In this document: positions 1-64,000 of the stretch, piece after piece
Layout: each line of letters opens with the position of its first letter
How positions within the stretch are numbered: the first letter of the stretch is position 1
Origin: Psammoneis japonica
Lineage: Eukaryota
DNA length: 64,000 bases
Assembly (NCBI GenBank): GCA_008632985.1
Contig: QPGO01000067.1
Coordinates: forward strand, 196,142 to 260,141
Direction of reading: 5' to 3'
Program-made: the position numbers and the translations under genes
The notes under the pieces: generated by a model
What the model was told of the DNA's origin: nothing
Database searches by the model: none
What the model saw: only the letters and a program-made list of their open reading frames with translations

Positions 1-37
1 CAAGTTTTTGGAACTTTCAACAAGAACAAAAGGTGAT

Positions 38-38
38 T

Positions 39-69
<31 letters not shown>

Positions 70-76
70 GGGGGGG
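38..76. repeat. (GT)n microsatellite followed by a poly-G run
   Basis: tgtgtgtgtgtgtgt followed by more than 20 G. Confidence 0.9.
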
Positions 77-329
77 ACAGGTGGCGATGTGAAACAAGTG
101 CAAAAGAACACACAAGCAGGACTTTGGCAGTGCCTCTGGGGCTTGTGCAGTGCCATTCCTTTTCTGTCAGAAGGTCCAGCCAGAGGGTGCCAGCACTGGG
201 CCAAGATGACAACTTTGCAGCTTTGATGAAGTTTGCTTGCCTGGGGATGTGTTTGCAGTTTGCTGGCCTGGGGATGTGTTTGTGAGGCTGACTCAGCAGC
301 AGCTCACAGAACAAGAAGAGTTGACAAGC

Positions 330-880
330 TGTGCTGCAGCACACAATGCAGAAGTTGTCAGATGTCTGCCAAGTCTTGTTCATTTTGTTTCTCTTGTGCA
401 CCACAAAGGTCGGGCAGACACAGCACCACATCAAAAAGGTTTGTGAGGGGAAAATGTTTTTGAGGACAGCAGATCACTTTGACAAGCATGCTTTGACCCA
501 TGTGCACCTCTCTGTGCTTGTGCTCAGGAAGGGATGCTGCAGAAGTGGAAGAATCACCAAAAGATGGGCACAAAAACATTGGGCGTTTGTTGTTTGAACT
601 GATTTTTCCTGTGAAAGAGCCCTGGAACTTTGAAGAAAGGTGGCTCTGCTTGGTGGCAGCTGGCATGCTGTGTGTTGCCCCAGCCTTTTTTTGCTGCCAA
701 AGCTGCGTGGCACTCACAACCTGCCCATGGACTTGCCTTGTCACCAGGCCCACCCACATTGCACACTGGCTGCAACTGCCACATTTTGTCACACACCCAG
801 CAACAGGGGGGAGCTTTTGTTTTGGAGAGGTGGGATCAACCAAGAAATTTTGAATGGATTTGCAAGAACAAGCACCCCAT
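330..880 (+). repeat. Copy 1 of a diverged internal duplication of a decayed coding sequence (copy 2 at ~3170-3720)
   Basis: Shared ccacaaaggtc..agacacagcaccacatcaaaaa, tttttcctg..aaagagc..tgga and gctgtgt..ttttt.gctgc. Peptides VVRCLPSLVHFVSLVHHKG vs VVGHPPRFAQCFVPLVCHKG. Confidence 0.75.
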
Positions 881-1399
881 TCTGAGCAACAAATTGTGGT
901 GCAAATGGATCACAAGAATTTTGCATCAGGAAATTGAGAAAGAATTTTTTTGCTGCAGGAGTGCACAAGGAGCACACAGAAAAGTCAAACCCGTGGGTGG
1001 GACCCTGGCCTTTCTTGTCGTTGAACTTTCCAGTGGCGTTCATTGCATGGAGCAAGTGTTTTGAGACTGCTTTTCATCATTGGCTGGATTTGCCAATTGC
1101 TCTTCCTTTTTGAATGACTTTGTTGTCCGTCATTGCATGCCATCTTTTGTGGCAGTCTTCTTGGTGCACTGTCTTTGTGGCAATGAATGACAGGCATCAC
1201 ATGTGGTGCTGCACCAACACCAGCTGGCTAGAGTTTGATGTGTTCCAGTCCTCATGGTGCATGTGGGTGTGCACTGGACAAAAAGCACTTTGAGACTGTC
1301 TCTGCCAAAGACAAACCAATGGGACACTTCTTCATTTTTTTGCAGCAACACAGCAAAGCCCCTGAAACTGTGGCATTGTGCCATTCCACAAGAACCATT

Positions 1400-2140
1400 T
1401 CATGCAACTGTTGGTGAAACATTTTGGAATGGACTTCAATCCTGGAGCAGATGGTTCTTCTCCATCACATTCAGCATCAATTGGTGGGAAATTGTTCTTC
1501 ACAGCAACTCAAAACCATGCAAAAGGGCTGTGGCTGGGTTGTGGTCCACTCAGTGACAACTCAAAAATGGCCACATGTGCGCGTCAATTCAGGAATGGTG
1601 TGTGATTTCCGGTCAAGTGAAACAAATGGAAAAGTGCACTTCACAGCTCTTGATGAAACACACAGGTGCTTGCTTTGGGTTTGTGATCCAGTCAATGACC
1701 ATTTGAGAATGTTTGAGGATGGCAATCCAGGAGGATGGCCTTGTCATTGGGGCAACTGGGAAGCAATGGATAGAAAACTGTGCTTCTTGTGGGTGATTTG
1801 GATCATGTGAATGATTTGACAAATGGTTTTGTGCCAATGAATGGAAAGCCATTGTGCATTTTGTCTGATGAGGTTTCTGTGAATGATCTTCTCAGCAGCA
1901 AAACAGAACATGTCACATCAACCCAGCAAAACAGAAAGTGCAGCATGTTTTGAGAAACAGAGGGAGGTTCTGGACCTTGCTCTTTTACACCAATGGAAGG
2001 GGTTCATTTGAGCTGAAGGCATGGGATGACATTGATGTTGATGGTGCATTTGTGACAGCATTGACAACTGTCCATCAGCTCTGAATGCTGATCAGGCCAA
2101 TGGCAATGGGGGTGGTGTTGGAGATGCTTGTGACAAGGGC
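1400..2140 (+). pseudogene. Decayed ELWxxDGT-like beta-propeller repeat protein with a thrombospondin type-3 repeat
   Basis: DFNPGADGSSPSHSASIGGKLFFTAT and ETNGKVHFTALDETHRCLLWVCDP resemble ELWxxDGT repeats (DINPG..SSP....IGG.LFF.A; NG.LYF.A.D...G.ELW). Positions 2051-2134 read CDSIDNCPSALNADQANGNGGGVGDACD, a TSP3 repeat. Frameshifts and stops throughout. Confidence 0.7.
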
Positions 2141-3169
2141 AGCTGGCCATTAAAAGCATGAGGGCCCATGGGCAAGGTGATGATTTGCTCATCTTTGACA
2201 GACAATGGGGCAGATTTGGAGCATTGCCATCCATCCTTGTGGGTGAGAGCAGCTGGCAGCACAAGCAAAGAACTTGTGCTCAAGATTTGGGCAGAGGACA
2301 ACTGCATGGACCATGCAAACAATGTGCACAAGCCAGAGTTGGCATGCAGCAGGAAATTTGTTGCCACTTCATTTGACAATGCTGCAAATGATGCAAAAGG
2401 ATGTCCAATGTGTTTGTTTGTCATGCTTTTGCCAACCCCTTCATGTTCCACCATCTCTGCTGGACCTGCATCAGACTCTGCTGCAGTGACAAATCAGCCA
2501 CAGCAGCAAGCCATTTTCATTCCTTGTGAAGCCTCTGTGCTGAACTGCCCAAACAACCTGCCTGCATTGTGTCACAGTTGGGGCTGGGTCCATGTCATCT
2601 TCAGCTGACACACATGTGCTCTGCTGTCAGCCTCACATGTTGGTGTGTGAGAGCACATGCCATCATCTCATTCATGTGAGGTGCTGCAAACATGGGGTTG
2701 CAACCCCAAGCAGCGCTGTGAGCTAACTCAACTCTCAGTCAGCACTGGCTGTTGTCTAAAGAGCCACAAGGTTCAAGAGACAGCCGCGGCAGCTCTCCAA
2801 CATGCCATGTGATGCTCTGCACCGACTCACATGAATGAGAGCACAAAAAGATGTGCAGCAGATGTGCACAGCATGGGTCACAATTCTTTGTCAGCACTCT
2901 CTTTTGTGAGAGGTCTCTCCACATCCAATGACCTCCTTTTTTGATCTTTTGCACTGTTTGTGCTGGGCTGCTCAGATGCATCAAACACAAGCTGCTTTTT
3001 CTGTCCAGATCATTGCAGCATGTCCCAGCTCTGACAAAGCAAGTGCATTCACATGAACTCACCACATGTTTCAGGTCTGAAACAGAGAAAAAATTTGATT
3101 GTGCTGTTGTCTCATGCTGTTGCCCATGCCACCAGTGTGTGGCTGCTTCACATGAAATGCACTGCCATT

Positions 3170-3720
3170 GCTCCATGCTGCTGTTGCACACAACCAAGGT
3201 TGTTGGACACCCACCAAGGTTTGCTCAATGTTTTGTGCCACTTGTGTGCCACAAAGGTCAGACACAGCACCACATCAAAAAAGTTTGAGAGAGGGCACAA
3301 ACAAAACTTTGAGAATGACAATGACGCCATGAACACTGAGGAGAGCTGCTTCTTTGACCCAGGTGCATGCACCTGCCACAGGACCACATGAAGATTGGTG
3401 TTGGGCATTGAGCATTTGTTGCTTCAGCACAACTTTTCCTGAAAGAGCCTGGATTTTTGAAAAAAAGGGTGTGTGGCCCACTCTGCTTGCTGGGGGCAGT
3501 GCTGTGTTGCCCCCCATGCATTTTTGCTGCTGCCAGCACTGCACAGCAATGGCGTTTGTCTTGCTGCCAGGCCAAACCATGTCATGCACTGGCAAAAAAT
3601 GCTGGCACATCAAGGACGGTGCTCTTTTTGCAACCTTTTGTTTTGCCACTGCTTGAATTTGAGTGTGAAGCCAGCGGCTGCACAGTCAAAAAGACAGCAT
3701 TTTCACCAAATTCTTCTGCA
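3170..3720 (+). repeat. Copy 2 of the diverged internal duplication (paralog of ~330-880)
   Basis: Alignable by eye to 330-880; see copy 1. Confidence 0.7.
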
Positions 3721-4246
3721 AGAAATGTCAATGCCTGAAAACAAAAGTTGGAGTTTGCATGTTGAGAAAGCAGATGACGAGCCCAATGATGCAATCTTGA
3801 GTGCCATTTGAGCAGCCAGAGTGAGATGGACATTTTTGTGAAAATTTGAAGCAAGGTTTTTGACAAAGCAACACACAGGGTTTGTTGTGGACACAACAAC
3901 TTGGATTGACAAACAGAAATGTGGGACTTGTGTGAATTTGAGGAACATGCTTTTCAAAACGATTTTTTTTTTTCTTTCATCACACGTCTCTAGCTAGCTA
4001 GAGTAGAGAGGCAGCTGCAGAATGATCAGGCACCACCCCTGTGGGCATGAAGCAGATCAGATGCCATTCTTTTTGATGTTTTTGAGGTGAGGTTAGATTC
4101 GGTGCAGCGCAGCAGCAGTTCGGGTCGCTTTGAGCGTGTGCGACGAGCGCGTGGTGCCGTTGCGTTGCGTGATTTTGAATTTGCTTCGTCCGCCCGCCCG
4201 TCGAACGAACGACGCAGCAAAAAACAGGGTGAAGTTCGAGTCAACA

Positions 4247-5974
4247 ATGATGATGGAGGAGGAGACGGACTCCGAGTATGAGGTCGACATAAGTCGAGAT
4301 AGCGATGGTGATGACGACGATGATAGTGCAGTAAGTTGGGATAGAGTTGATGAAGACGAGGACGCCGAGATGGAGAGTGAAGACGAAGAACGCAGAATCA
4401 GGATACTTCGAGAGTACAACGATGAGGCGAGCGTGTCTGAAGACGATGCTTCATTCATGTCTGCAGAGTCCTTAGAGCGCACCGATCGAAAAGGAAAAAC
4501 GAAGCTCCATCATTTGATTGATATGGAAATGTATGAAGCTGCAATTCAACAGCTGAAGTTGGATCCATCGGATGCAAGCGTTCAGGATAGCGAAGGATGG
4601 ACGCCTCTCCACATTCTCGTACAGCAGGATTTTCCTGATGGGGATCTTGACGATCTGAAGAACAGTCCTTTTGTTTCACTGTTTCATGAGCTGCTACGCG
4701 CATTTCCCGACGCAGCCGTAACGCGTGATGCTCTCAGAAACACACCGCTTCATCAGCTCGTTGGATCCGATACGAGTAATCTACTTATATGGGTATCCTT
4801 AGAACTCTTGAGAGCTCTTGTTCAGTGTAACCCGAAAGCTCTCTCCATGGCGTCTCTTGATAATATGTTGCCACTACACGTGGCAATGTACTCTTCTGGA
4901 CAAGGTGATGAGGACGATCCAAGCACTCCGCCGATTCAGCAGATGGTTATTGAGACCCTCCTAGACGCTCATGAACCCGCTGCAAGCTCACCCGACAGCA
5001 GTGGAATGTACCCTCTACATCATTTATGTAGGCATTGTTCAATGAGGATGAATGTAGCTGTCTTTGAAAGGCTGATGGAAGCATTTCCAGATGCAGTAAG
5101 GCTCAAGGATGAATGTGGCCGATCTCCGCTTCACCACTACATGCGCAATTTAGCAGACTCGGAAATTGTGGTTTCATCCTGTCTCCGGACATTCGAAATC
5201 CTCCTGAAGGCGAATCCTGCAGCGCTCTGTGCACCAAACGCATACGGGGACAGGCCTCTTGACGATTTCTTCCACGCGTGTTTCCCGTACATGATATATT
5301 CTCGGGTTCCTCCTATTGAGGATTCCCCCGACTTCGAACAGTACTCATTGCAACATGAAGAAGATGAAGCTTTCTGGTCACTAGTTCACATGGTTCTCGA
5401 AACTGCGCATTACAACTTGAAAGATGCCAAATCAGAATTGTCCTTTTCGAACCGAGAAGACTGGCTAGTGATCCATTGCGCAACGGCTGTTGGTTGCCCA
5501 ACCCGCTGGATAGAACGATTCATCGAGATGCACCCTCACCAGCTCATGGAAAAAGACAGAGACGGTAATCTTCCTTTGATGATTGCAGCCAGCACATCGG
5601 ACTGCGCTGGATCTACAGATGAGGACGGTGAGAACCATACCTGGGCCAATGGTCGGGTGGTGCTTCATACGTTGCTTGAAGCGAATCCCGAGGCTGCAAG
5701 GGTACCAAATCGACAGGGTAGACTACCCCTCCATGTCGCATTGGAGAATGCACGAGTAGATGATCGCGGAATAGTCTCTCTCATTCAGGCAGCTCCCCAG
5801 GCGTTGTCGACAAGAGACGTAAAGACACGCATGTATCCCGCGTTGTTGGCTGCGACCTGTCGCAAGAATCCAGGGGGGGAATCAGTGGAACCTGCCCACG
5901 AAGCAGCCAGCAAGCTAGGAGTTTGTTTCGAGTTGCTTCGCGAATACCCTGCAATCATTTCTCTTGCTTCTTGA
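4247..5974 (+). CDS. Ankyrin-repeat protein with acidic N-terminus
   Basis: Repeated GWTPLH/NTPLH/MLPLH/GMYPLH/GRSPLH/GNLPL/GRLPLH motifs. First ATG run in the ORF is at 4247. Confidence 0.85.
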   Translation: MMMEEETDSEYEVDISRDSDGDDDDDSAVSWDRVDEDEDAEMESEDEERRIRILREYNDEASVSEDDASFMSAESLERTDRKGKTKLHHLIDMEMYEAAIQQLKLDPSDASVQDSEGWTPLHILVQQDFPDGDLDDLKNSPFVSLFHELLRAFPDAAVTRDALRNTPLHQLVGSDTSNLLIWVSLELLRALVQCNPKALSMASLDNMLPLHVAMYSSGQGDEDDPSTPPIQQMVIETLLDAHEPAASSPDSSGMYPLHHLCRHCSMRMNVAVFERLMEAFPDAVRLKDECGRSPLHHYMRNLADSEIVVSSCLRTFEILLKANPAALCAPNAYGDRPLDDFFHACFPYMIYSRVPPIEDSPDFEQYSLQHEEDEAFWSLVHMVLETAHYNLKDAKSELSFSNREDWLVIHCATAVGCPTRWIERFIEMHPHQLMEKDRDGNLPLMIAASTSDCAGSTDEDGENHTWANGRVVLHTLLEANPEAARVPNRQGRLPLHVALENARVDDRGIVSLIQAAPQALSTRDVKTRMYPALLAATCRKNPGGESVEPAHEAASKLGVCFELLREYPAIISLAS

Positions 5975-6095
5975 CCGCGATTTTCGCGAATAAAAGATGC
6001 AGAGTAGTGGCGGAAACGCAACCTTGTATCAAAAGTTGCCTACTGGTATTTAATTAGTTTCTACTTTTTTCACTCCGCTTGCCATCCAAGTTTGT

Positions 6096-7895: not shown

Positions 7896-10800
7896 ATGGC
7901 ACGTCCACAAGAAAGCAAGAGATACAATTCAACATCATGTTTGGTCGTCTGTGCTCTGTGCCTTTTGTTTTTGCCAGCGTTGAATGCAGATCATAATAAG
8001 GTGGAGATACCCTCGGCTACGAGCATAAGATCAACGGCATCTTTACCGTCAAGCAGTGTGTTCAGATTTAAGAATGCAGATAAATCAGTTTCCCTACAGC
8101 GCACGTTGGTGGGAACTCTCTCCCGAACGATTGCAAAGAGACTGCTGCTCGTTCGCAATTTCAACGAGAGCAATCCTGGGACGCTTTCACTACGTCGTCA
8201 CTTGGCGATTGGTGACTTTGAAGAAATCAATGCTCTTGTCAAGGACGTTGAGCTTGAACTGCCCGATAACAACCCTTCGGAAGATCTCTCGCTCACAAAT
8301 CTTGTTTGTAGCGACTTTAACATTGGTGACATTTTGGTGTCGTATCAGCGAACCTCAGTTCAACGTCTCGCCATGGAATTGAACGTGACTGCCTTTGATA
8401 TGACTTGTAACATGGACTACAACTATGGGAGTTGGCCGTTTTCAACTTCTGGTAACTTGAACGCAATCGGCTTGGATAACAACGTCTCGCTTACGCTTGG
8501 GTTAACGTCGCCGTTCAGTTTTCAAACAAATCCACCGACTAACGCGACCCTCGATAATTGCTTTTCTGAAATCAATATCGATGATATCCAGTTCTCGGGT
8601 GGAATTATTGCTGGTATTTTGAATATATTTTCAGGCTTGGTCAGCGCTGTTGTGGAGACTGAGTTTGCTGATGTGGTTTGTTCAGAAGGGTCTACTGCCG
8701 CGAAGGACCTCGCATCCGACCTTATGCAATCCGCAAATGAGTTTCTGCAAGAATTTCAAGGAGCTTCCGTGAGTAATCCCTTGCTTCCGGAGACCTCGTT
8801 GCTGCAGGCACCACCCAGCAATACTTCCTTGATGGATCTGCAAGACAAGGATGGCTTTTTTGGGATCGCCCTACAGATGCTTCGTAATGAAATCTACTCC
8901 CGCTTCGGCGTAGAAGTGGATGACCCGAATGGACCCAAATTAACTGGCCGAGATTTAGGAGCGAACGCATTCTTGCGAAAGGAGGTGTTGGATCAAGATC
9001 GTGCCCTTGTACTCGAGATGAACCAGACTGTCCTCGACAGCCATGACAACCTAACGCACACTACCTTGGAGATTGAATCGGTGCGCCTTTTCGGGCTTGA
9101 CACCTTGACCCTATTTAAGCCACTGGCGAGTATCGGAAACTACACCTTGGCGAATGATTTGGCTTTTGAATTTTTGACGGCGGAATTGGACGTGAAGCTC
9201 ACGATCCGTCCCTCAACTCTTCCGGACTCGAGCTTTCAGCAGTCAAACGCAAACGCGGAAGACATCGTCGAGACCATCAAGGTCGATTTTGGACTTGATG
9301 CGATTGATGCGCGTATTTCGGCGCTTTTAGCAATCGATGAAGACTCCTTGGGCGACACGCCACTTGGGGCGATCCTAAACACGAACTCAAGCGGGCTATT
9401 GCCGTGTTTGCTGTCCACGCTTCATCAAGTACAACTTTCGGAGCTCAAAGTATCTGTTGCGGGAATTCGTGCGCCAAGCTTGAATGGCGATGAATCGTCA
9501 TCAGGCATTGTTCGCATTTTGTCTTCTTTAATTGACGCATTGTTCTCCGTGTATGAGCCTACGGTCTTCGACGTGTTACCAAACCTTCTCGGGATCGAGG
9601 GTTTGGACCTTATCAACAACGACTTCATTAAGAGCTATTTTGATGATCCCGTCAACACTGTCTGTGCTGAACCTCAAGCTGAATCGGGAGCCCTTGACTC
9701 TCTTTATATCCGTGATTTGAAGAACATTTTTCAAACCGCAAATGAGCTTCTGGAAGAATATCTAGGAGAAGATGTTTCCACACGTGATCCATTGCTCCCC
9801 GAGACCACACTGTTGGCTGCTCCGCCCTTCAATGTATCGTTGATGGATTTTCAATCGTCGAAGGGCTTATTTGGGATGGCCTTTCAGATGCTTCGTGATC
9901 AAATCTCCACTTTCAATGAAGAAGTGGATGATCCAGATGGACCCAGAGAAAATGGCCGAGATCTTCGAGCGAACGTATTCTTGCGAAGCGAAGTGTTGGA
10001 TCAAGATCGTGCCCTTGCTCTCAAATTGGGGATGGTCCTCTTGGAGAGTCATGACAACCTGTCGCACACTACAATGGAGGTTGTATCGGTGCGCCTTCTC
10101 GGGCTTGACACATTTACCAAGTTTAACCCACTAACGGTTATCGGAAACTACACCTTGGCGAATGACTTGGCTTTGGATTTTTTGACGGCCGAATTGGAGC
10201 TGAGGCGTACTACTCGTCCCTCGACTCTTCCAGAAACGATGGTTAAGCAATCAGATGCGGAAGTCACGGTTGAGACCGTCAAGGTCGAATTTGGGCTTAC
10301 TGACCTCGATGCACTTTTTTCGGTGCTGTTGGCAATTGATGAAGACTCCTTGGGCGACACGCCTATTGGGGTGATCCTGAACACAAACTCAAGCGGGTTA
10401 TTGCCGTGCTTGTTGTCCACTCTTCATCAGCTAGAGCTGTCGGAGCTGAACGTATCTGTTGCGGAACTTCGTGCGCCAAGCATAGACGACGAGATGTTGC
10501 CGGAAGACGTTTTAAATCTTCTGTCCTCTTTCGTTGATGAACTTTTCTCCGTTTACAACACGACTGTCTCCGACGCCTTACCAAACTTGATCGGGACCGC
10601 GGGTGTGGACCTTGTTAACAATGATTTCCTCAAGAGCTATGTCGACGATCCCGTCAACACGATCTGCGCTGAACCTCCAGCTGAATCAGGCGCCCTCGAC
10701 TCTCTGTATATTCGTGATGTGGCGAACATTTTTCACACGGTAAATGAGTTTCTGCAAGAATACATCGGGAAGGTTCCCACGCGGGATCCCTTGCTCCCGG

Positions 10801-13800
10801 AGACCACTTTGTTGGGTGCTCCGCCAAACAATATAACTTTGTTGGATTTGCAATCGACGGAGGGATTATTTGGGATGGCCTTTAAGATGATCCGTGATCA
10901 AATTTCCTTTTTCAATGAAGAAGTGGATGATCCAGATGGACCCAGAGAGAATGGCCGAGATCTAAGGGCCAACGTATTCTTGCGAAGCGATGTGTTGGAT
11001 CAAGATCGAGCTCTTACACTCGACATTGGGATCGTCCTCTTGGAGAGTCATGACAACCTTTCGCACTCTACCTTGGAGGTTGAATCGATACGCCTTCTCG
11101 GGCTTGATACGTTTACCAAGTTTAACCCACTTTCGCTTATCGGAAACTATACATTGAAGAATGAGTTGGCTTTAGACTTTTTGACGGCCGAATTGGACCT
11201 GAGGCGCGCAACTCGTCCATCTACACTTCCGGAATCGATGGTTAAGCAGTCAGTTGTGGATGAAACGACCGAGAGCATCAAGGTTGAAATTGGACTTACT
11301 GAGGCCTATGCACTTTTTTCGGTACTGTTGGCAATTGATGACGACGCCTTGGGGGGCATGCCAGTGGGGGCGATCCTTGACCCAAGCGGCCTATTGCCAT
11401 GTTTTCTGTCCACGCTTTATCAAGCAGAACTTTCGGAGCTGAACGTGTCTGTTGCAGATTTTCGTGGGCCAAGCCTGAATGGCGAGATGTTGTCTGAAAA
11501 CATTTTCGATCTTCTCTCATCTTTTGCCGACGAATTGTTCTCCGTTTACAATACTACCTTCTCCGACGCCTTGCCAAACTTGATCTCGACGGGGGGTTTG
11601 GACCTTATCAACAATGATGTCATCAAGAGCTATGTCGACGATCCCATCAACACCAAATGTGTTAACAGCCGAGCTGAGTCGGGCAACAGTGATTTTATAG
11701 ATTTTCGAGATTTACTGTTGACACCAGAGAAGTCAAGAGAACTAGGCGGAAGCGGCGAAAGCCAATACGGGGATTTGGTCCGAATCATCATCGGATTTAT
11801 AAAGGAAGAAGCGCTGAAGATAGATTCAGATGGACTGTCATCGCTGAATGATCTTATCCGACCTTTCCTTGAGAGTGATCCCGATACTCCCGGCGCGATC
11901 GTCGTTGAAAACTTGTTCGAAGGGAGCTTTTTGTTTGAAGTCGGTGAAAGAGTTGCAGATATCGAATTGAGAGCCTTCGGTGCAAAAGTTGAAAATGTCG
12001 ACTCACTTGGCGCTCCGATTGGGCTCTTGGAACCGGTGTTAAACGAACCCAATATTCTCAACAATACAGTCACTCTTGGAGTAGGAGCTCCCGTGCGAGC
12101 TGCACTTCGTCTTGTGTTTGCACTGCAAGATGGTGAGGTATCGTGGAGTATATCTGTTTTGCTTTATAACCCGTTGCTCACGATCGTTGACTGTACGCTG
12201 TATCACTGTAGAGGACCTGCAACTTCGAAACGAGGTCGATATTAGCATCGATTTGGAGGCAGCTACGTTGGTTCTCGGTGCCTTGCTGAGAATATCCGAA
12301 GAGCCGTTTTGGGTGTTTCCCCTTCGTGACTTGACCAATTTCAACTGCTTGATAGCTACTATTCCTGCGCCTGTCCTTGATGCTCAAGGATTCAGAGTCG
12401 GAGGCGAGCCAGACGCGGCCGTGACCGACTTGGCATTGTCTATGGCCGCGCTAGATTTCAACTTCTCTTGTGTTTCATGTACAAGCCCAAAGTTAAACGA
12501 GCTCTCCGACCTTCTTTCTTCTCCCGAGAACGAGGACAATGTCTTCGAGGCAGGAAAGATGGTAGTTGACCTTGTCACCGATCTTGTCTCTGGTGATTTC
12601 GCTCAAAACCCGGATTGACCGCATACTTAACGAGGCCGCCATGCAGTGCCCTCACAACGATGCCTACGATCCCGCTGCATCGCTCGAATACGAGTCATTA
12701 GAACGACCCTATACAGGATCTCAGTCTGTGACATTCCTTGTTGCGATTGTTGCCGCCATGGCGTTTGCTTTCGTCATTGCACTGATCATCTATTTTGTGA
12801 TCAGGCGTATTGTTCGAAAGAGGCATCGCAAGTGGCTCATGTCTCTTTCCAGTGAAAACATTGCTGCTCTATACAAGGAGCAATGTCGAGAGTATGACAT
12901 CAACAAAGAAACCCAGTCCTTGTTCACCAGTCCGGTCATACCGAGATATGTGCGCTATCTATTGCCGATCCTCTTCCTTGGGACCATCGCATTGTTTCTC
13001 AGCGGCCATCTGTCTCTGGCAGCGCGCGTTAGCGTTGAGGCCAATTTGTTTGGTGAGAGTTTCGACATCGACAAGGTACAAGAATTCTCTATGAGCAAGT
13101 CCTTCTCCGACATCTGGAATGCTGGCAGTCATGAGCTTGCGATTCTGATTTTGATTTTCTCGGGTGTCTGGCCCTACAGCAAGCAGATCATTACGATTGT
13201 TCTTTGGTTCCTGCCGCCTTCGGTCTTGTCTGTATCAAGGAGAGGCAGTGTGTTTTACTGGCTTGACACTCTTGCTAAATGGTCCATGGTCGACGTGTTT
13301 ATGATGGTTGTTTCTATTGCTTCCTTTCGAGTTTCGTTCGAGAACCCCGAATCTGACATTTTGCCGGACGGCCTCTTCTCTTTCCAACTTATGGTCGTTC
13401 CTATGTGGGGTCTTTACGCCAACATGATAGCGCAGCTCCTTTCTCAAGTGAGCTCTCACTTTGTCATCCACTACCACAATCGCGTGGTGTTTGACGCTAG
13501 CGAGAAATACGACTACGAACACCCGAGTCCCAAAACTCTAGTCGGCGACGATGTGGAAAAAAATGGTTCTAATTCGGACACAAGCAGTTCCTTGTCATAT
13601 TCACGAATGACAAAAACAGAAAAAGTCCCGGACGGGCGTTTCGATCGACTCTACGTGCATGCTTTTGTTCGACCACATCGCGGGTCGTCAGACACGCTTG
13701 TTATTCGCCGTGGCATCAATGCATGCCTCATCGTGATATCGATTGCTATTGTGGTATTGGTGGTATTTGGTTGCATTCGACCCTCCTTCTCTGTGGAAGT

Positions 13801-42342: not shown

Positions 42343-42479
42343 TGAAGATAGTTCAGAGCGTTGTCGCGCCACTCCCAACGTGAGAGGCTTAATGTTAATA
42401 TAACACCGATAGTCACATGCAATAGTCCTCTTCTGTAACTAGAGTATAGTGCGGTAGTCCTAGCGATGCATGTCGTCAA

Positions 42480-46435: not shown

Positions 46436-46554
46436 AAATACCATATTATCTAAATAATAGGGAAATAGAAATGGGTTCTATATAGAACATAATACAGTTG
46501 CAGCCCTTCTTCGCACTTCCATTCCCAAATTCCTTCATTCCTTGATTCTTCTCG

Positions 46555-48695: not shown

Positions 48696-48859
48696 CGTGC
48701 TGCCCTACAGTATACTCGGTGCTTGCGAGAGATACAGGCACAACTTCTGCAACAAGATGCTTTCAGCACAAAGCGTACAAGTTTAGTCGTGTATTATTTG
48801 AAATTTTAAAGAATTTATGGAAATATTTGGGTCAACGGTCGCGGCCGTTATTTGGTAAC

Positions 48860-51800: not shown

Positions 51801-52430
51801 CGATGTGGAAACAAGGAAGTCCTCTCAGCATCGTGATGCCGAGGCAGAAGTGAAAGCTGTTTTTGTTCACGATCAGATGATTGCTTGGCAAGAGACAAGA
51901 TGCATCTGTTGGATTTGGTCAAAGAACACTTGACACATTTGACACATCATCTCCGCAATTGGCTGGCCATGGTCAAGCCAGTGTTCAAATCGAGCATCTC
52001 AGAGAAGCAAAACGGTTTGCTGCCAGAGGTGCGAGAACCATTGCAGGTCATTTCGGTGCAGCATTGCCCTCGGGTGACTCCAACTCTGGCCAATCACCAC
52101 ATGCTCCTGCTGCATCATCAGTGCGCTGGGGGTGTGGGTTGGCTTGTTGCCGGAGCTTCAGGGTGGAAGCGGCGCAGCAGCACTTCAAATGCAGATTTTT
52201 GGTTTTGTTTTGTTTTGATCCAACAACCATGAACCCGCTTGTCCATGAAGACACGGTGCATGTGTTTGGTGATGAATGCACTCCTGATGGAGGACATGAT
52301 GGGATTTTATGCCACAGGTTGCCGGGAGCTTGATGACAGATGGGTTGAGAAGGTTGATCCAGGAGCACCTTGCTTGAGCGAGCACGTTCTGCACACATCT
52401 GCAGCAGAAAGCCATGAACTTCAACTTCGA
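48860..52430 (+). mobile_element. Hypermutated non-LTR retrotransposon (LINE) relic with RNase H and CCHC zinc knuckle; TpA-depleted block C
   Basis: SLGGRGFRSL (post-RT), HWVKGHQD..LSLAAQLNVQADRLA (RNase H), IDW, CTHCQDPMEDRDHILHCPH, QEQIGW...NGRL. About 11 TA in ~3570 bp. No Tyr in the 285-aa ORF 50861-51718. Confidence 0.85.
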
Positions 52431-52711
52431 TGACGTAATTACACACCAGTAGAAATCTACGTCTGTAACATATGACTACTGTACTGTAGTTATATACCTA
52501 CAGCCAGCATCCTTCGATACACTACCTAAAATAGTTCGGATTTGTGGGGATTCCAGAACGGCAAGTGCTTGCATACGGCACGGGTCGGTCGGAGGTCGGC
52601 ACTTTGAACTTACTACTCTCACAGATGATGATAATAAAGTTGTTCGATGTTCAAGCACAACATCATTTTTTTAGTTGAGCAATCCTATCGGCACTTACAC
52701 AGACACACACA

Positions 52712-54457
52712 ATGACAACGAGTACGGTACGTTTCGTATTGGCCTTCTCCCTATTGAGCCAAGTCATGTCACAAAGAACACTTGGGTCCACAACTGACTC
52801 GCTAGTTTCAGATTTGGCGGAGTTTTGCGACGAGCAAGAAAAGGCCGCAATGGAAACTGAAATCTCAGTGTCTGACTCTACAATGCGCTTCAACAACAAG
52901 TGCATGTGCGGGTTTTTAAAGACTCCGCATGTAGTATTGCCAGAGTCGGCTGCTGCGAAAACCGCCCTCGTCGGAGACAACGGCATTGTAGCTGCAATGA
53001 CATTCTGCTTGAATGGCTTTGCCAGTGTCGCTGATGGGGAATCGTATCCATGTAAAAACGTTGATCTTTTGGCTCATATGAGTAACCAGCGAGTCAACGG
53101 AGCTGTCGAACCCAACGGTATCATGAATGACCTTTGGGGTTGGACGGACGAAGTAACAGGACGTGAGTATGCACTTGTCGGCACCTTGTCAGGAACTGTC
53201 TTTGTCGACGTTACGACTCCGGAGACCCCCATAAGTTTAGGCAAGCTTGTCTCTCATGAAAATGTTACAACACTGTGGCGAGACATCAAGACTTACGGGA
53301 ACTACGCCTATGTCGTTGCCGAGACAGACAATCATGGGATGCAAGTCTTTGACCTAACGAGACTTCGGGGACTTTCTGAAGATCCCGACCTCATATTTGA
53401 AGCCGATCTTCACTACGCTGGTTTTGGAAACGCGCATAACATTGCCATCAACGAACAATCTGGCTTTGCATACGCGGTCGGTACAAGAGCTTGTGCAGGA
53501 GGAGGAATGCACATTATGAATATCACAGACCCACTATCACCAAGTTTTGTAGGATGCTTCAGCCAAGGATATGTTCACGATGTGCAGTGCGTGATCTACT
53601 CCGGAGTTGACTCGCAACATAATGGTAAAGAGATTTGCTTTGCTTCCATGGCCAATCAAGTTAAGATTGTGGACGTAACAGACAAGAGCAACATGATTGT
53701 TCTATCCTCAACCTCATATGAAGATAGCAACAAAACGTACACGCATCAAGGTGAGTTGTGTCACGTACTACGGTCTCTGTCCTCTTTTGAATCCCTCTCT
53801 CGCTTCTGTTGGCATCATTCGTAACCAGGTTGGCTCACCCTGGACCAAAGGTACTTTGTTTTCGGAGACGAGACGGATGAGATAGAGCTTAAAGTCCGAA
53901 CTAGAACGCATGTGCTCAATGTTCAGAACCTGTCTGATCCTGTCATGGCGGACAGGTATGATGCGCGGACTGACGCCATTGATCACAACCAGTACATCAA
54001 CGGCAATTTCGTTTACCAAGCAAACTACCGAGCTGGTCTCCGGATTCTCGAAATGACCGGTGCCAGTTTAAACGAGGTGGGATACTTTGATATCTGGCCC
54101 ACGGACGATGCGGCTACATTTAATGGTGCGTGGTCGACGTATCCGTTCTTTTCTTCTGGGATTGTTATTGTCAGTGGGATCGAGCAAGGGCTTTTTGTCC
54201 TCAAGCCGACAGTTGGCCCGCAAAATCCTCCTCCCTCGGGACCCAACTGTTCTGGCATTACGGGAGCATCCGAATGCGGCAGTCAAAACGGAAAGTGCAT
54301 TTGGAAGCGGATATGGTGTCAAAACACAGACTCGAGTGATCTCTCAACCGTGCCATGCGAAGAGCTCATGCATATGCAAGCTTGCGACAGTCAATGGCTA
54401 AGGTGTCAGGGAGAATATTCGCTTGGTGAATTCTCCTGTTTCACTAAATCGCCCTAA
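52712..54457 (+). CDS. Secreted choice-of-anchor B protein, paralog 2 (close duplicate of 40585-42342)
   Basis: Same motifs and long identical nucleotide tracts. Intron 53751-53828 at the same position. Upstream and downstream flanks are also homologous. Confidence 0.9.
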
Positions 54458-54699
54458 GTGAAGATAGTTCAGAGCGTTGTCACGCCACTCCCAACGTGGG
54501 AGTTTTAATGGTAATATAACACCGATATATGGTTACGATAGTCCTCTACTGTAGCTAGAGCAGCGATGCGAGTCGTCAAATAATAATGAACGGGTAGTAG
54601 GGCCACATGCGACAACCCCCTTCCCGAAATTCTGTTAGCCATGTGGACAAATCGAAATTGCCGTGTGCCAATCAATCTTTCGACCACCGCCAAAACACT

Positions 54700-55690
54700 G
54701 TTTTCGTTCCTTTTCAAGAAGTGAAGATAAAGATCTTGGGTGGCATTGCAGCATCTGATCCTCATTGTGGCTCTCATCAACATGCCCAAACTTCGGGCCC
54801 TTCGACACAATGGGACAAAAAAAACAGTCACATTCTTGGTGTGAAAAGATGTTGCAACAGAGAGTGTATCAAATCACTGGAACAGTGGGCTCACAAATCA
54901 TCCCCGGCAACAGGATGAAGTGTTGCCTGCTCGTCAAGAGTGACAAAGTGCAAAAGAAGGTGCTCGCTGAAGTTGGTTTTGGGACAAAAACACTGCTCAC
55001 AGTGTGTGAAAGAGCCCAGGTGCAGAAAAGGATCATGATCCAACCTGCCACAGAAATCAGCACAGCACCTCCAATTAATGCTGTGAACCAGATGGGCCAA
55101 CCACCTGGGTTCCAAAAGAGCTCTCAGGCCTGACTTCCTTTGCAGCGCTGTTGCAGAAAATGAAAGCAAAAGCAGCTTCACAAAGAGGGGTGTGTTGGAG
55201 CATTCATTTTCTCTCTGCCCCAGAAGGTGGCAGATTGCCAAGTTGCTTCCAATGTGGAGCCGCATTCCATGGGCTGCTGCCACTTTGCTGGAAGAAGCCC
55301 CCCCACGCGACAAATCCTGTGTGCTTCTCAGCTCTCACACACACCACCAGATGATTTTGTTCTGCCAACAACACCTTTGCTGGAGTCGATTGCTCACCTG
55401 TCAGTCTAACAGATGTGGTGGATACCTTGACTGACACGGAAGAAGAGCACCACTGAATCTCAGTGCTCGGCACAAACAAGGGCAGCCATTTCGGGGCTTG
55501 GGCCTGCCCCGAGGAGTTGCCTCCTTCTTCCATTGTGACCCTGGAACCTTTTCATCAACACATGGATAAATCCCCACAACCCTCCACAGCTCTGGTCTTC
55601 GGAGGGCAGGGTTTTCTAGGATCCTTGTCGATGGGGCAATGGGTGCAAGGCAACAAGGCCATTCAAATTGGCTTGCGGCACGCTTCTGCT
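54700..55690. other. TpA-depleted block D (less complete); left end homologous to the start of block B
   Basis: About 6-7 TA per kb, CA/TG-rich. 54560-54800 aligns with 42460-42780. Confidence 0.7.
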
Positions 55691-55877
55691 TCATCAGAGT
55701 AGTGCAGCGCAGCCAGTGCAGCGCACGCAGTTAGACTTAGAGGATGGTCTGCTGTCGTCAGATGATAATGAACCTCCATCCATGTAGATGTCGCAATGAC
55801 GTTTGTTTTGCCGCCACTATTTTGGAATTTTCGTGCACGCTTCTTTCATTTTTTTTCATTCCGTTTCTAAAACAACT

Positions 55878-57622
55878 ATGGCATTGAAAACTCTGCGTTT
55901 CGTAATTGTGTGCTCGTTACTCATGGGCAAGAAGCTTTCGTTAAGTTTGAGTATTGCGTCTATCGTAGAGCAGCAGATGACTGAATACAGCAAATATTGC
56001 AATGATCAAGACACAAAACAAAAGAAAAATGCAGCGACAGTCGCGGATTCAAATGAGCGCGTCAACAACAAATGCATGTGTGGGTTTGTAAAGACCCCGC
56101 ATATAGTTGAGTCATCGTTCTCCATCCTTCGCACCGATAGTTCGAACGGCGCACCACTTGCACCTTGCGTGGGTGGTTTTGCTGGTCCTTTTCCTTGTTC
56201 GAATGTCGATCTCCTCGCATACATGAGTGTTCCGCAAGTGAATGGGGGTGAAAACGGGACATTGAACGATGTCTGGGGCTGGGAAGACCCTCAAACAGGA
56301 CGCGAGTATGCACTTGTTGGTACAGTGTCAGGCACGAGCTTTGTAGACATTACACACCCACACGATCCCAAGATTTTGGGCAAGCTTCCGACAAACATGA
56401 ATCAAACGTCGTATTGGCGCGACATCAAGACTTACAATGATCATGCCTTTATCGTTGCCGAGTCGCCTACACATGGAATGCAGGTATTTGATCTTACGAA
56501 ATTAAGGGGATTGCATACTTCTACCGACCTTCCAATTGCTTTTGAAGCGGATGTAATCTACAATGACTTTGGGAGTTGTCACAATCTCGCGATTAATGAA
56601 GAGACTGGTTTTGCATATGCCGTGGGAACTGATACTTGTTCAGGAGGACTGCACATGATTGATATTATGGATCCGCAGTCGCCGCAGTTTGCTGGATGTT
56701 TTGGTGATGATGGATACACACACGATGTTCATTGTGTGACGTACAACGGCAGCGCCGCCATCTATGTTGGTCGTGAAATTTGTTTTGCATCAAATACAGA
56801 CAGTGTTACCATCGTTGATGTTTCAGAGAAGGCCAATCCTGTTATGGTATCCAGAACGACATACACAGGCAGTAGCGAAACCTATACGCATCAAGGTTTC
56901 GCTACGGATGATCACAACTATTTCGTATTCGGAGATGAAGCAGATGAAGAGAAGCTTGGTGTTCCAACGACAACACTTGTACTCAATGTCATGGACTTGG
57001 ATAGTCCGTTCATGGCAGGTTCACATGTTGCATCAACTCGTGCTACGGATCACAACCAATACATTAAGGGAAACCTTATATACCAAGCAAACTATCGCGC
57101 TGGTCTCCGGATTTTAACATGACCGACATTTCTCAAGGCAGCTTGGAGGAGCTGGGATACTTCGACATCGTTCCCGAAGATGATGATGTTATGTTCAATG
57201 GAGCTTGGTCTACTTATCCTTACTTCAACTCTGGCACCGTCATTGTAAGTGGGATTGAGCAAGGGCTATTCATTCTTCGACCTACTGGGATCTTAGATGC
57301 TCGGACACAGACACCAACACCAGCACCGTCAACAACGCCGACCTTGTCCCCGACTTCTCTTTCAGCCGCTCCAACAAACATTCCCACGTTATCGCAAACG
57401 TCTCCTCCGACAAACTCTCAGTTTTCTCAACCTATAATTACCGACACGCCCTCCACTTCACCCACCGCTACAACTCAAAGACCCTCGACTGGTACATCAT
57501 CTGCATTTGGTCCTATAGGGTGTCCACTGTTCACCGATTATCCGTACGTCTGCGGCTTCGTTTCAAGGTGTCAATGGGACAGCGATTCCGGCACTTGCGG
57601 ACCTAAGCCATTTGGAAACTAA
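55878..57622 (+). CDS. Secreted choice-of-anchor B protein, paralog 3, with Thr/Pro/Ser-rich linker and Cys-rich tail
   Basis: FPCSNVDLL, NDVWGWEDP.TGREYALVG, YWRDIK, DGYTHDVHCV, YTHQG, ATDHNQY, GAWSTYPYF.SG. No intron at the HQG site; 1-bp slip at ~57117. Confidence 0.88.
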
Positions 57623-59726: not shown

Positions 59727-59843
59727 AAGCTAAATGGTTAGTGTAAATCGTTAAGTGTCATTTCCACTTCGACACAAAGAAAGCTAAATGGTTAGTGTAA
59801 ATCGTTAAGTGTCGTTTCCACTTCGACACAAAGAAAGCTAAAT
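59727..59843. repeat. 54-bp tandem duplication (2.2 copies)
   Basis: aagctaaatggttagtgtaaatcgttaagtgtc(a/g)tttccacttcgacacaaaga twice, then aagctaaat. Confidence 0.92.
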
Positions 59844-61095
59844 ACTTGACGGTGGTGGTCAGATTTCAAATTCTGAGCAATACAGAAATGTCAATGATGA
59901 ATAAGGATTTTTGATCGCTTCTGCCGTAAATGTCATTACGCCAATGCCACTCTAGTGAATACACAAATGAATTTGTATTCCATCCTTTTCCTGAACTTTG
60001 ATCTATCGGCATTTTCGATACGAGTATACGCGATGACAACAATAAGGCATGCTTGTATGTGTCATGGCCATAAGCTGTGAGGCGTACCGTCACATTTGGA
60101 TTGAACTCGGGGATCTTGATGTCGAAAGTAGCCATTTGTTTGACATTCGTGATTTTTCATCGCCCACAAACTGGGATTTCAACTGAGTCGAGTTGATGTT
60201 GGACGTGTTTCAAAGCACTGCGTTTGATGAAACAATTGAGGGCTCTGGAATTATGGCATTTTATGCCATGGAGACTTAAAACAGTAAATGGGTTGACAGT
60301 CAAGCAGTGATCGGGTTTGCCAACATTTCCAAAAATGTGACAAGCAACAAAAATTGCATCACTCAACAACCAACAACATCTCAAGAGACAGAAACAAGAA
60401 AAGTGACTCCTCTTTGCACTTGAATTAAAAGAGACAACAATGCACAACAAACATTTGAGAAGGACAAGAACAAGCTCTTGAATGCATGAAACAAGAAGAG
60501 AGTCAATGAAGCAATCACTCTTGTTTCGAACCTCTTGACCTGTTCTGTCCATGATGGTGGTTGGTTGAGAAAGGTTGGTGGTGGTTTTTTGTGTGACTTG
60601 CAGCTTGAGGCATGTTGATGCATGAACACATTGGTGTCACCTTTGAAATGTGCCACTTGTGGAGCTTGAGTGGACAGCTCTCTGTGCTCAAGCTTTGTCC
60701 ACCAAATGCTCCGTCAAAGTCCAGATGCTGCCCGCCCCCCATCCCACCCGACCATTGACACAAAACAGTTCTTGCAAAATGTTGTTGCCTGTTTCCCTCT
60801 TCCTCTGCAGAGCAGCTCTCTTGGTGACAGTGCTGCCCACATCCCAGAATGTGCTCAAGAATGCTTTCTAACTTGCCAGCCAAGACACCCAACTCGGGGC
60901 TGTGTGGGCTCAAATCTCTCTCAAGACAAGCTGACATTTGTGCCTGGCACTGGTGGCAATGCTGAGCCCTCCTTCCCATTTGACTTCCCAGGAGTGTGCC
61001 CAGACCTCCTGCATGCCAGGTGGCTCAACCACAAGAGTCGCCATCTTTGCCAGCTTTGTCAGCAGGATGTGCCAAGGCTGCTCTGGCCATGTGTG

Positions 61096-61337
61096 CACCT
61101 GGCTGGCACCACAGTGCAAGGACAGCTGCGACAGCACTTTCTGCTGTCAGCAAAGAGTGTGAGCTGGCTGGACTGCCCAACCCCACACTTCACAGCTCCT
61201 TGGCAGTCACTCTAAATCATGTGCCAACTTGGGGTCAACCACACCTGGCTGGCTGCAATGCAAAGACAGCTGTGGCAGCACTTTGTGGCAGAGTGTGAGC
61301 TCCTGGCTGGGCTCCCAACCCCACACTTCACAGCCCC
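61096..61337. repeat. Two diverged ~100-bp direct repeats inside block E
   Basis: cacctggctggc...gacagctg...cagcacttt...agagtgtgagct...ggctgg..cccaaccccacacttcacagc at ~61096 and ~61240. Confidence 0.8.
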
Positions 61338-62249
61338 TCAGCAATGGCTCCCAACCAAATGACAACTTGGGACCAATGGCTGTGAAGTGCCATTGTTTCA
61401 AATTCCTGTGCCTGGCCCCTCACACAGCTTTGCACAGGGTCAACATGTGTGTGTGGCCTCTTTGCAAGATGGGCCCCTGGCTGGCTGCTGACTCAGCCAC
61501 GGCTTGCAACAAGAAGCCACCACAACACAGAGCATTGTGGGGTGAGTGCAGCACAGCTTGAACAAGCAAACCATGCTGAGATCACCCAGAGTTGGCTGCT
61601 GTCCTGGGGCTCCATTCAAAGCTGAGCTGGGCTGCTTGGCTCCTTGGTGTGCAGCACATGCTTGGCATCACATTCTTGTCGCCAAACAGCCACATGGCAT
61701 GTGCCCACCATTTGTGTCTGCAACAGCGACCCCAGTCACAAAGAAAAGGTTGAACCTGCTTTTGTGGTTGAAGAGTGAAGAAACTGTGAGCGAAGTTGGG
61801 TTCAAGATTTGTTGGCAATGCCAAGTGGGCAGCCAAAGAGAGGCACCAAAAATGGCTGTTCTTGCTCATTTCTCAAGAGGAGCTTGCACTCATGATGCAG
61901 GGTCTGAAGCAAGCACCAGTCAAGACAACAGTTTTTTCTCTCTGCCCCACTTGAAACACAGCCTTTGAGTCAATGTGGTGCTCCTTCAACAATTTGCACA
62001 CACTTGGATGAGCAGAGCTGGAGCCAGGGCAGCTGGCCTGGCAGGGCTTGGCTGACACCCAAGCTGGGCTGCTCAGCTTGGTGGCACACACTCAGTGTCA
62101 CATCTCTTTGCACCTGCAGCAACCACCCTGGACCAAAAGAAGCCAGTGCAACTCTGGCCCTGGTTGCATGGTCAATTGTGTGTGTGTTCAATGGTCGAAT
62201 CCCCTCTTTTTTTCTCTTTTCCTTTGACCGGCCACGAACATGAAAAAAT

Positions 62250-63800
62250 TGCCGAACTGCCATGGTTCCTACAACGCCTCGAGGAATTGGGCCCTCAACA
62301 CGGTGTCCGCCTCAATCGCTCCAAGACACACACACTCACCTCAATGACCGGCACCAGCCCCCTGCCAAACTTGCCCCCAACAAGTGCCAACGCCCTCCGC
62401 CAAGCCCTGCATTTCCTCAACCCTGCTGACGATCCTGCCCTGCATCCCGAAATCACCACTGGCCTCCGCTTCCTTGGCCAACCCATTGGCAGCCCCACCT
62501 TTGCCCACACCTGCCTTGAACAAAAAGCTGACACCTTCCACACCAACCTCAACAGACTCTCATCACACCTCCATGACACCCAAACCAAAAGCTCCCTCTG
62601 CCACACCTGTGCCATCCCATCACTCCTGCACCTGCTGGCGTCCGACGTCCACTTCAACTTCAACCCAGACAACCCACAACCCCTCACTTCCTGGACTTCA
62701 CCTTTCCAACAAGAGGTCCAATGCCACTGCGACACCTGCCTGCAACATCTTACAGTGCAACCACTGCCACTGCCACCGCACGCCACGCTCCTCGCCCACC
62801 TCCCAGCATCCTCCGGCAGCGTCGGCTGCCGATCCACATCCACCTCCACCATCCCCTTCCTCGTCTCTCAACTCACTCGCTCCTTTCGACATGCAACACA
62901 CGGACCGGTCACAGGCCAGGACAACCCCCTCAAGCTCCCACCTTTCTACGCTCGCTCCCTCCGCGCCTGGGCCACCTCCCGCCGCCCCTTGCACCTGTGT
63001 CAGGTCTTTCAACACTGCGGCAAAGCTGCTGCACACACTCTCGACCCCCCCCCCCCACCTTCCCTGAAAGCCTTAGTCAAAACGCACCCGCTGCGCAACC
63101 TTTCCCACACCCTCCATCATGCACACTTCGAATGCATGCTCGCAGACCTGCGCCTGCATGGACCATCGCACATCACCCATGCGCTCCCGTCCCCCTTCTC
63201 TCTCCACTCACAAGTCTCGCCCTCCACTCCCTTGCTCGCACGCTGCCTCAACAACGCCCAAACCCTGAACAGTTCCGCCTGATGCTACAATGCAAATTGC
63301 GGCTCCCCATCTTGCTGAATCAACTCGCACCTGCCTCTTGCCCCTCTTGCTCCGGCACCATCAACCCATGCGGTGACCATGCCTTTTGTTGTCGATCCCT
63401 CGGACACAAAACAACCATGTCCAACGCCATCCGCGACGGCCTCTGCGCTGCTTTCCAAACACTTGCTCCACTCTCCGGCATCTGTGCCGACTCTTCTGCC
63501 GCACACCATGAACCAACCAATCCAATGCCTCATTCACCCCTCAAACGCCCTGCTGATGCAGGCATCCAGCTTACCCCAGCCGCCTCTGCCGCCTCCCCTC
63601 TTGGCCACCGACACCTCGCCATTGACATCACTGTCCCTGAACCCCCCCATTGCCTGCTCCTGGCTTGCCTGCCCCCACTCTTAACCCTCACACTGAGACA
63701 CACCACACGAGCACAAAACGGAAGTTCAACGGAACCCACGAGACCCAACACGAAGCAACCCTTGCACCCGCCCTCAACAACGCCGGTGTTTTTTTCCCTT
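62250..63800 (+). mobile_element. Hypermutated CRE-like non-LTR retrotransposon relic (RT C-terminus, zinc knuckle, restriction-like endonuclease)
   Basis: G.RLNRSKT, GLRFLGQPIGS..FA, LP.SSG.VG.R, LRLPIL..CPSC....GDHAFCC, IRD.L, EP....KRPAD...LAIDITV (PD-(D/E)xK type). One Tyr in the 395-aa ORF. Confidence 0.82.
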
Positions 63801-64000
63801 TGCCATTGACCACCTGGGAGCTCCAGGCCACTTCACCCACTGCCTTCTTTTTGGTGCCAACCAAGACCTCCCCATCCCTGCTCCACCCGCCCCACCTTGG
63901 AACACTGAAACCTGTTTTCAACACCTGCTGCCCACGCCGCACATGACTGTGCCCAACAATCCCTGTCTGCCATCCTCCCTGCTGCCACCGCCACCTGGCA

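Follow-up and report, generated by a model that had tools for sequence, protein, structure and literature searches.

Repeat-induced point mutation (RIP) of ascomycete fungi, which acts before meiosis and depends on a RID/DNMT4-type or DIM-2 methyltransferase, is the closest known system to a pattern that we find in five blocks of putative mobile-element DNA in a 64,000-nucleotide stretch from the diatom Psammoneis japonica (GenBank assembly GCA_008632985.1, contig QPGO01000067.1, positions 196,142 to 260,141, forward strand; hereafter the window). RIP brings about dense transitions that are confined to mobile or repeated DNA, have sharp limits and hit copies independently; elements are riddled with missense and nonsense changes, and their dinucleotide composition is skewed. 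The blocks resemble RIP in these respects. However, RIP is a change of C:G to T:A, mostly at CpA, that makes TpA and lowers G+C, and it needs sequence duplication, whereas in the blocks TpA is destroyed (A:T to G:C), the cytosine target is CpG, G+C is unchanged, the lineage is that of diatoms, and a duplicated 1.87-kb host segment is untouched.

Other known processes cover parts of the pattern. Decay of 5-methylcytosine (5mC) at CpG, in vertebrates, plants and the transposable elements (TEs) of diatoms, turns CG into TG or CA in TE bodies without flank preference and can account for the CpG half of what we see, but it leaves TpA alone; in the blocks TpA loss exceeds CpG loss, even where CpG is largely kept (62001–64000). 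APOBEC3 and ADAR enzymes likewise kill mobile elements by deamination with a neighbour-base preference, but they act on single-stranded complementary DNA (cDNA) or RNA and leave clustered, one-strand signatures, whereas the blocks have unpatched products of both types, and conversion came after a chromosomal duplication. The only well-known route of A:T-to-G:C deamination in DNA is that of the engineered adenine base editors (evolved TadA), which prefer TpA but are man-made and guided by Cas9; we know of no natural DNA adenine deaminase that serves as a genome defence. Very-short-patch repair in enterobacteria is tied to cytosine methylation, and its T-to-C correction removes a TA-containing word (CTAG), but the effect is mild, genome-wide and limited to one tetranucleotide, and CTAG-type (YTAR, with Y a pyrimidine and R a purine) sites are those that survive best in the blocks.

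The five blocks are located at 1–3990 (block 1), 42462–46438 (block 2), 48857–52430 (block 3, plus strand), 54700–55690 (block 4) and 60200–64000 (block 5, plus strand). They total 16,333 bp, and the remaining 47,667 bp of the window serve as the outside control; blocks 1 and 5 continue past the left and right ends of the window, respectively. The blocks contain 48 TA dinucleotides, an observed-to-expected ratio (obs/exp) of 0.05 compared with 0.57 outside, and 261 CG, with ratios of 0.25 and 0.99. Conversely, CA stands at 1.74 compared with 1.15 outside, and TG at 1.82 compared with 1.16. A preliminary description of this DNA, made from the letters alone, had reported five blocks nearly without TA, with low CG and dominant CA and TG, and the counts bear this out: blocks 1 to 5 have 6, 10, 11, 7 and 14 TA (obs/exp 0.02–0.12) and 22, 49, 72, 19 and 99 CG (0.10–0.37). 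Block 1 has ratios of 0.02 for TA and 0.10 for CG, and block 4, the shortest, is the least clean (0.12 for TA, 0.30 for CG). The manual TA counts given earlier for the four large blocks (about 6, 10, 11 and 9) were exact for the first three and too low for 60200–64000, where we measure 14; about 22 TA had been read in the ankyrin stretch at 4261–4860, which contains 23.

The depletion is strong within the blocks and ends abruptly. In 1-kb intervals inside them, obs/exp is 0.00–0.10 for TA and 0.07–0.33 for CG, except at 62001–64000, where TA is nearly gone but CG is only partly depleted (0.5–0.7); elsewhere the values are 0.33–0.79 and 0.47–1.19. At the start of block 2 (42462–42690, a short stretch of low complexity) TA is absent and CG is normal, so that the CG depletion of this block begins only near 42690. 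The TA-poor zone of block 5 starts at about 60290–60430. The longest TA-free gap is 1234 bp; the median TA spacing is 18 bp. The edges are sharp to the base pair; at 46439–46493, 12 TA crowd into 55 bp directly after 236 bp that have none. Open reading frames (ORFs) of at least 100 amino acids (aa) number 3.3–5.0 per kb in the blocks compared with 2.4 in the main normal region; the dense spurious ORFs noted earlier are thus present, but as a modest excess of about 1.4–2-fold.

What has been lost as TA and CG is found again as CA and TG. Normal DNA has 38.3 TA and 57.9 CG per kb, of which the blocks have lost 35.4 and 41.9, respectively; these losses sum to 77.3 per kb, and the gain in CA and TG is likewise 77.3 per kb. 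G+C is nearly equal (0.50 in the blocks, 0.48 outside), and the summed density of Y-R dinucleotides is 240.6 per 1000 in the blocks and 240.5 outside. Thus, at the purine/pyrimidine level the blocks resemble ordinary genome DNA, and only the identities of Y and R have been redistributed.

Two of the blocks could be assigned through their relatives. A Pfam scan of 15 block ORFs and 30 stop-read-through frames yielded no domain, with four sub-cut-off matches at chance level (E 0.019–0.075), and a homology search with a 401-aa ORF of block 2 gave no match. With the block 3 frame, HMMER found 1509 relatives among 1.84 billion representatives, 44 of them at E ≤ 1e-30. Six long relatives were scanned with Pfam: RVT_1 was present in three and Exo_endo_phos (an APE-type endonuclease) in two, and two gave no domain. 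The block 5 frame has three relatives (P0271–P0273), all three with RVT_1. Judged by these relatives, block 3 appears to be a dead copy of a non-long-terminal-repeat (non-LTR, LINE-type) retrotransposon and block 5 a dead copy of a second reverse transcriptase (RT) element, also of non-LTR type. The two families are unrelated to each other (best BLASTP E 0.34); what had been described as two unrelated retrotransposon classes would therefore be two unrelated RT families, both of the same general type. Blocks 1, 2 and 4, for which neither Pfam nor homology gave a match, are unclassified, and the dead gene copies of the preliminary description are candidates at most. An RNase H-like motif in block 3 and a CCHC/RPAD-like motif were recognised by eye only. 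In the tblastn alignment of its relatives, block 3 shifts frame six times or more and has lost an internal segment, which marks it as an old copy; read in a single frame, it contains eight TGA stops. A young copy with one frame over 3 kb is ruled out by the same frame changes and deletion. Homology to the relatives begins at 48862, only 5 bp into the block, the TA-free edge of which lies at 48857.

The relatives also reveal the direction of change. We used frame-aware tblastn columns with at least five relatives (882 block 3 codons) and took the residue present in half or more of the relatives. At 11 Tyr columns, block 3 has no Tyr, six His (CAT/CAC), one Cys (TGC), two Phe and two other residues. 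At 26 Arg columns, it has kept eight Arg and shows 12 single-transition derivatives of CGN (CAT, CAC and CAA three times each, and CAG, TGC and TGA once each). Control columns are conserved in 47 of 52 cases (Trp 20/20, Cys 7/7, His 7/8, Lys 6/7 and Phe 7/10). Over all 882 codons, Tyr is absent where 28.0 are expected from the aligned relatives, and Arg (31 versus 58.8) and Ile (24 versus 49.5) are reduced, whereas His (71 versus 43.6), Cys (30 versus 19.5) and Met (25 versus 14.0) are in excess. Block 5 (392 codons) behaves similarly, with 1 Tyr versus 7.2 expected, 24 His versus 16.8 and 15 Cys versus 9.6. Tyr occurs in all of 153 relatives (minimum 0.8%, median 3.3%). The blocks thus descend from ancestors in which TA and CG were at ordinary levels. 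Two claims of the preliminary description hold up here: Tyr codons (TAY) have turned into those of His (CAY) or Cys (TGY), and the bias, being common to two unrelated RT families, foreign to the 153 relatives and having arisen independently in paralogous copies, is not the native composition of one element.

Duplicated sequences within the window show that copies were converted separately. A gene encoding LVIVD repeats and its 3′ flank occur twice as a 1.87-kb segmental duplication (copy A, 40582–42454, and copy B, 52709–54571, both on the plus strand), the copies of which are 88% identical and which, with its normal TA and CG, provides an internal control. The two copies end in a TA-poor block at equivalent positions, copy A in block 2 and copy B in block 4, and these blocks are themselves homologous over their first ~200 bp; 42677–42882 aligns to 54692–54919 with 88% purine/pyrimidine (R/Y) identity. 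Block 1 contains a diverged direct repeat (332–451 and 3179–3295, 95% R/Y-identical). Paralog pairs were aligned by purine/pyrimidine class only, blind to the products, which avoids the inflation of discordance by a transition-tolerant aligner, and a CA/TG site was counted only if it had gap-free agreement in no fewer than 11 of its 12 flanking columns. In this way, CA in one copy is opposite TG in the other at 4 sites and the copies agree at 9 in the block 2/4 pair; the corresponding figures are 4 and 11 for the block 1 repeat, and 9 and 33 for the three block pairs combined. By contrast, the duplicated host gene shows 0 discordant and 186 concordant sites (Fisher p = 1e-7 versus the block pairs), and conserves 53 TA/TA and 72 CG/CG sites. 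Because CA opposite TG is what results when an ancestral TA or CG undergoes a separate single transition in each of two copies, each copy was converted on its own, and for blocks 2 and 4 this took place after the chromosomal duplication, sparing the adjoining duplicated gene. CA-type and TG-type sites are intermingled along all five blocks and form no patches (runs test, z from −1.34 to +1.69), which argues against processive one-strand editing.

The two losses differ in their dependence on flanking bases. Relative to normal DNA, and with strands pooled, TA remaining is 0.012 in RTAY, 0.047 in mixed contexts and 0.287 in YTAR, whereas CG remaining is 0.18–0.24 in all three flank classes. Y-TA-R accounts for 28 and R-TA-Y for 2 of the 48 surviving TA, whereas the 1829 TA outside include 308 of the former and 582 of the latter (Fisher p = 2e-10 and 5e-6, respectively). 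Since TA loss depends on the flanks and CG loss does not, two activities are separable. Losses and gains balance in mixed contexts (21.57 and 21.54 per 1000), where the products lean to R-CA-R/Y-TG-Y (13.67 versus 7.87), an asymmetry that is suggestive of the same flank rule. Block 3 has kept about 8% of its expected TA and about 35% of its expected CG (11 and 72 observed); with 47 of 52 control residues unchanged, the loss is faster than ordinary decay. As a rough inference, TpA would be lost about 50–100 times, and CpG about 20–40 times, faster than the average site. The latter rate falls within the range known for 5mC; to our knowledge, the former is without precedent.

Set against the known systems, the block pattern is thus not a member of the fungal RIP family. 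TpA falls to 0.05 of expectation instead of rising through C:G-to-T:A change, CpA and TpG rise to 1.74 and 1.82, and TAY becomes CAY or TGY; a duplication of 1.87 kb, well above the few hundred bp at which RIP is triggered, has been left intact. The confinement to repeats, the sharp limits (a 5-bp edge) and the independence of copies (9 of 42 sites discordant) are as in RIP. The CpG changes are those of 5mC decay, in that CG goes to TG or CA irrespective of flanks, with 0.18–0.24 of CG remaining and an outside obs/exp of 0.99, although methylation itself is presumed here. As to editing before integration, both products occur in every block with |z| ≤ 1.7, where one strand and clusters would be expected, but a partial bias remains in block 3.

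We propose that the blocks would be old dead copies of mobile elements, at least two of them unrelated non-LTR retrotransposons, in which almost every TpA and most CpG would have become CpA or TpG by single transitions after chromosomal integration, site by site, on both strands and inside the exact limits of each copy. One activity would convert C to T at CpG without flank preference, and deamination of 5-methylcytosine is its simplest reading because diatom TEs are known to be CpG-methylated, as stated in the accessible part of PMC9998398. The other would convert A:T to G:C at TpA, more completely than the first acts on CpG, being fastest at R-TA-Y and slowest at Y-TA-R. Our first guess for this activity is a deaminase, TadA/ADAT-like or of another kind, that would be brought to the same chromatin and act on the adenine of TpA in either strand; enzymes of the TadA/ADAT/ADAR group favour a 5′ U or T beside the edited A. 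A second guess is oxidation of thymine to 5-hydroxymethyluracil or 5-formyluracil (5hmU/5fU) by a TET/JBP-type enzyme, the product of which would then mispair with G; dinoflagellates are known to have 5hmU at TpA. Targeting might rely on TE-specific chromatin or on small RNAs, and the action could have come in a burst or have been continuous.

Of the candidate mechanisms named in the preliminary description, a TpA-preferring DNA adenine deaminase is possible. Pol-eta-type mutagenesis at WA motifs fits poorly, as AA is not depleted (obs/exp 1.22). Deamination of a modified adenine also fits poorly: eukaryotic N6-methyladenine (6mA) is described at ApT near active promoters and not on TEs, and Phaeodactylum tricornutum as having 5mC only, in the part of 10.1101/2024.10.28.620566 that was available. 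According to the accessible part of PMC9998398, a DNMT4 related to RID, its function unknown, is present in many diatoms. A literature search, with subscription-only papers and bioRxiv supplements outside its reach, found nothing on TpA-removing hypermutation, 5hmU or TE-associated 6mA in diatoms.

Real hypermutation at TpA and CpG confined to TEs is the most likely explanation: we put the probability of a RIP-like process acting by transitions on double-stranded DNA at about 0.5, to which a passive variant, discussed below, would add. That a natural mutator converts A:T to G:C at TpA and C:G to T:A at CpG in silenced mobile chromosomal double-stranded DNA, with R-TA-Y preference, is a more specific proposition for which we see slightly less than even odds. 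Several observations weigh against the RIP-like process. The untouched host duplication (1.87 kb, 88%) implies that plain duplication is not the trigger. The product asymmetry that the flank rule predicts holds for blocks 1, 2, 4 and 5a and fails for 3 and 5b. The sense strand of block 3 has 16 CA-type versus 3 TG-type products at conserved Tyr and Arg columns (p = 0.004), and its excess of His (27) over that of Cys (10.5) would not come from a purely symmetric process; transcription, replication or a polarity at the cDNA stage could be the cause. The age of the block 3 copy suits slow decay as well. We know of no natural adenine-directed DNA mutator of this kind. Finally, no independent copy of the sequence was found: the three public sequencing runs listed for a stretch of this DNA come from one sample and one study, include no RNA and may be the source of the assembly; exact look-up of 10 ORFs of the window (4 from blocks, 6 normal) in a protein collection gave 0 of 10; and neither an exact stretch of block 3 nor a neighbouring normal-gene stretch had a match among metagenome contigs.

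This last point bears on an artefact, in which base modifications of TEs at CpG and TpA (5mC, perhaps 5hmU) would have been misread by a signal-based long-read base-caller as the other pyrimidine or purine and left unpolished in repeats, the real DNA having normal TA and CG. Near-total removal confined to TE blocks is what a modification domain would give, independent outcomes per copy are likewise expected, the flank dependence could be a k-mer dependence of the base-caller, and all the runs, for which no platform is stated, derive from the one sample and study, with no independent data found. However, the consensus would have to be in error at about 10% of positions, solely by transitions that keep R/Y (240.6 versus 240.5), next to genes that are free of errors: the host genes are clean, the apparent split in one of them being a GT..AG intron and not a frameshift, and long homopolymers such as G24, A13 and C12 are resolved. 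Run X1 contains 0.95 of the 31-mers sampled from a stretch of which 71% is block DNA. For the three runs, with 141, 30 and 1 million letters, the shares are 0.95, 0.15 and 0.00, which by our own Poisson estimate fit about 5× and 1× coverage of a genome of ~30 Mb by accurate reads, and error-prone reads at ~5× could not contain 95% of exact 31-mers. At 62001–64000, moreover, CG is largely called as CG while TA is not called as TA. Nanopore data of P. tricornutum showed 5mC only, and the available part of 10.1101/2024.10.28.620566 reports no such miscalls. We therefore regard an artefact as unlikely, though a possibility of some weight, and consider that the cellular DNA would truly have the block sequence.

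If the changes are real, they might still be a by-product of silencing, with 5mC at CpG and a mutagenic mark on T or A at TpA decaying slowly to equilibrium. Besides the age of block 3, with its frame changes and deletion, the 12% R/Y difference between the paralogs in blocks 2 and 4, the lack of a flank preference in CG loss, which 5mC decay predicts, the low TA of old and diverged blocks, which suits a continuing process, and the CpG methylation of diatom TEs (accessible part of PMC9998398) speak for this passive variant. It is nevertheless distinctly unlikely in our view: by our own estimate the loss of TA needs about 50–100 times the background rate, above any known dinucleotide hypermutability, base-pair-sharp edges are unusual for a chromatin domain, and the literature seen, part of it incompletely, names no TpA-directed mark in diatoms. 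Editing before integration, in which single-stranded first-strand cDNA would be deaminated (C to U and A to I) during retrotransposition in the manner of APOBEC3, would explain why the converted zone matches the element copy to within 5 bp, and the CA excess on the sense strand of block 3 has the polarity of minus-strand cDNA deamination. Yet TG-type products are abundant in that same block (the Cys excess, the eight TGA stops, and TG 367 versus CA 433), block 5 is balanced (2 CA-type versus 2 TG-type), none of the blocks has strand patches, and blocks 2 and 4 share their host flank and boundary but are discordant at 4 of 13 strict sites, so that we hold this route to be quite improbable. Least of all do the data allow an intrinsic composition, with elements natively avoiding TA and CG like some viruses. 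A mild shortage of CpG and UpA is found in many viruses and retroelements, but depletion to an obs/exp of 0.02–0.1 is far beyond any native avoidance known to us. The absence of Tyr where 28 are expected and its presence in every one of the 153 relatives, the replacement of conserved Tyr and Arg by single-transition derivatives, the occurrence of the bias in two unrelated families and three unclassified blocks, and the discordance between paralogs lead us to reject it.

Further features of the blocks and their surroundings were recorded. Near the start of block 1, (TG)7 is followed by G24 (~40–76), and the start of block 2 has G11, C9 and T9 within 160 bp (42493–42650). Block 5 has a 146-bp tandem repeat at 61094–61377 and a coding remnant at ~62200–63650; the latter overlaps a region (62001–64000) that is rich in C (41–43%) and strongly strand-skewed (GC skew −0.42). 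DNA adjoining the blocks is unusually rich in TA (42390–42461, 46439–46493, 48776–48856, 52436–52499 and 54506–54598), with, for example, 13 TA in 64 bp; it may be intergenic DNA of the ordinary kind or AT-rich sequence that served as an insertion target. Neither a target-site duplication nor poly(A) was recognised.

The genes around the blocks encode an ankyrin protein, an aldo-keto reductase, a PqiA-like protein, a spermine synthase, a BIG/Sec7 guanine nucleotide exchange factor (GEF), a Macro protein, three LVIVD paralogs and a sirtuin, the named relatives of which are diatom proteins of at most 66% identity. The LVIVD-repeat paralogs lie on the plus strand at 40585–41709, 52712–53824 and 55803–57122. 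The third shares its 3′ flank with the first (56910–57282 and 41728–42092), but no TA-free block follows it. The BIG/Sec7 gene has a canonical 83-nt GT..AG intron at 27687–27769, and a second gap of ~86 bp at 28774–28858 is probably another intron. A 1449-aa ORF without a Pfam domain (7896–12245, plus strand) contains three tandem ~1-kb units (8731–9688, 9736–10692 and 10740–11685) with 85–89% purine/pyrimidine identity.

Were the sequence an artefact after all, it would point to an unrecognised TpA modification in diatom heterochromatin or to a serious error mode of long reads. Elements converted in this way are missed by Pfam and homology searches and give rise to spurious ORFs, and TE content would be under-annotated as a result. 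If hypermutation is confirmed, it would for the first time place a RIP-like genome defence outside fungi and would be the first natural adenine-directed (or thymine-oxidation-directed) editing of DNA, a natural counterpart of the adenine base editors. Such an enzyme activity would be new to nature and relevant to genome editing, to mutation biology and to the compactness of diatom genomes, and mutational genome defence would reach beyond fungi into one of the main groups of primary producers in the sea.

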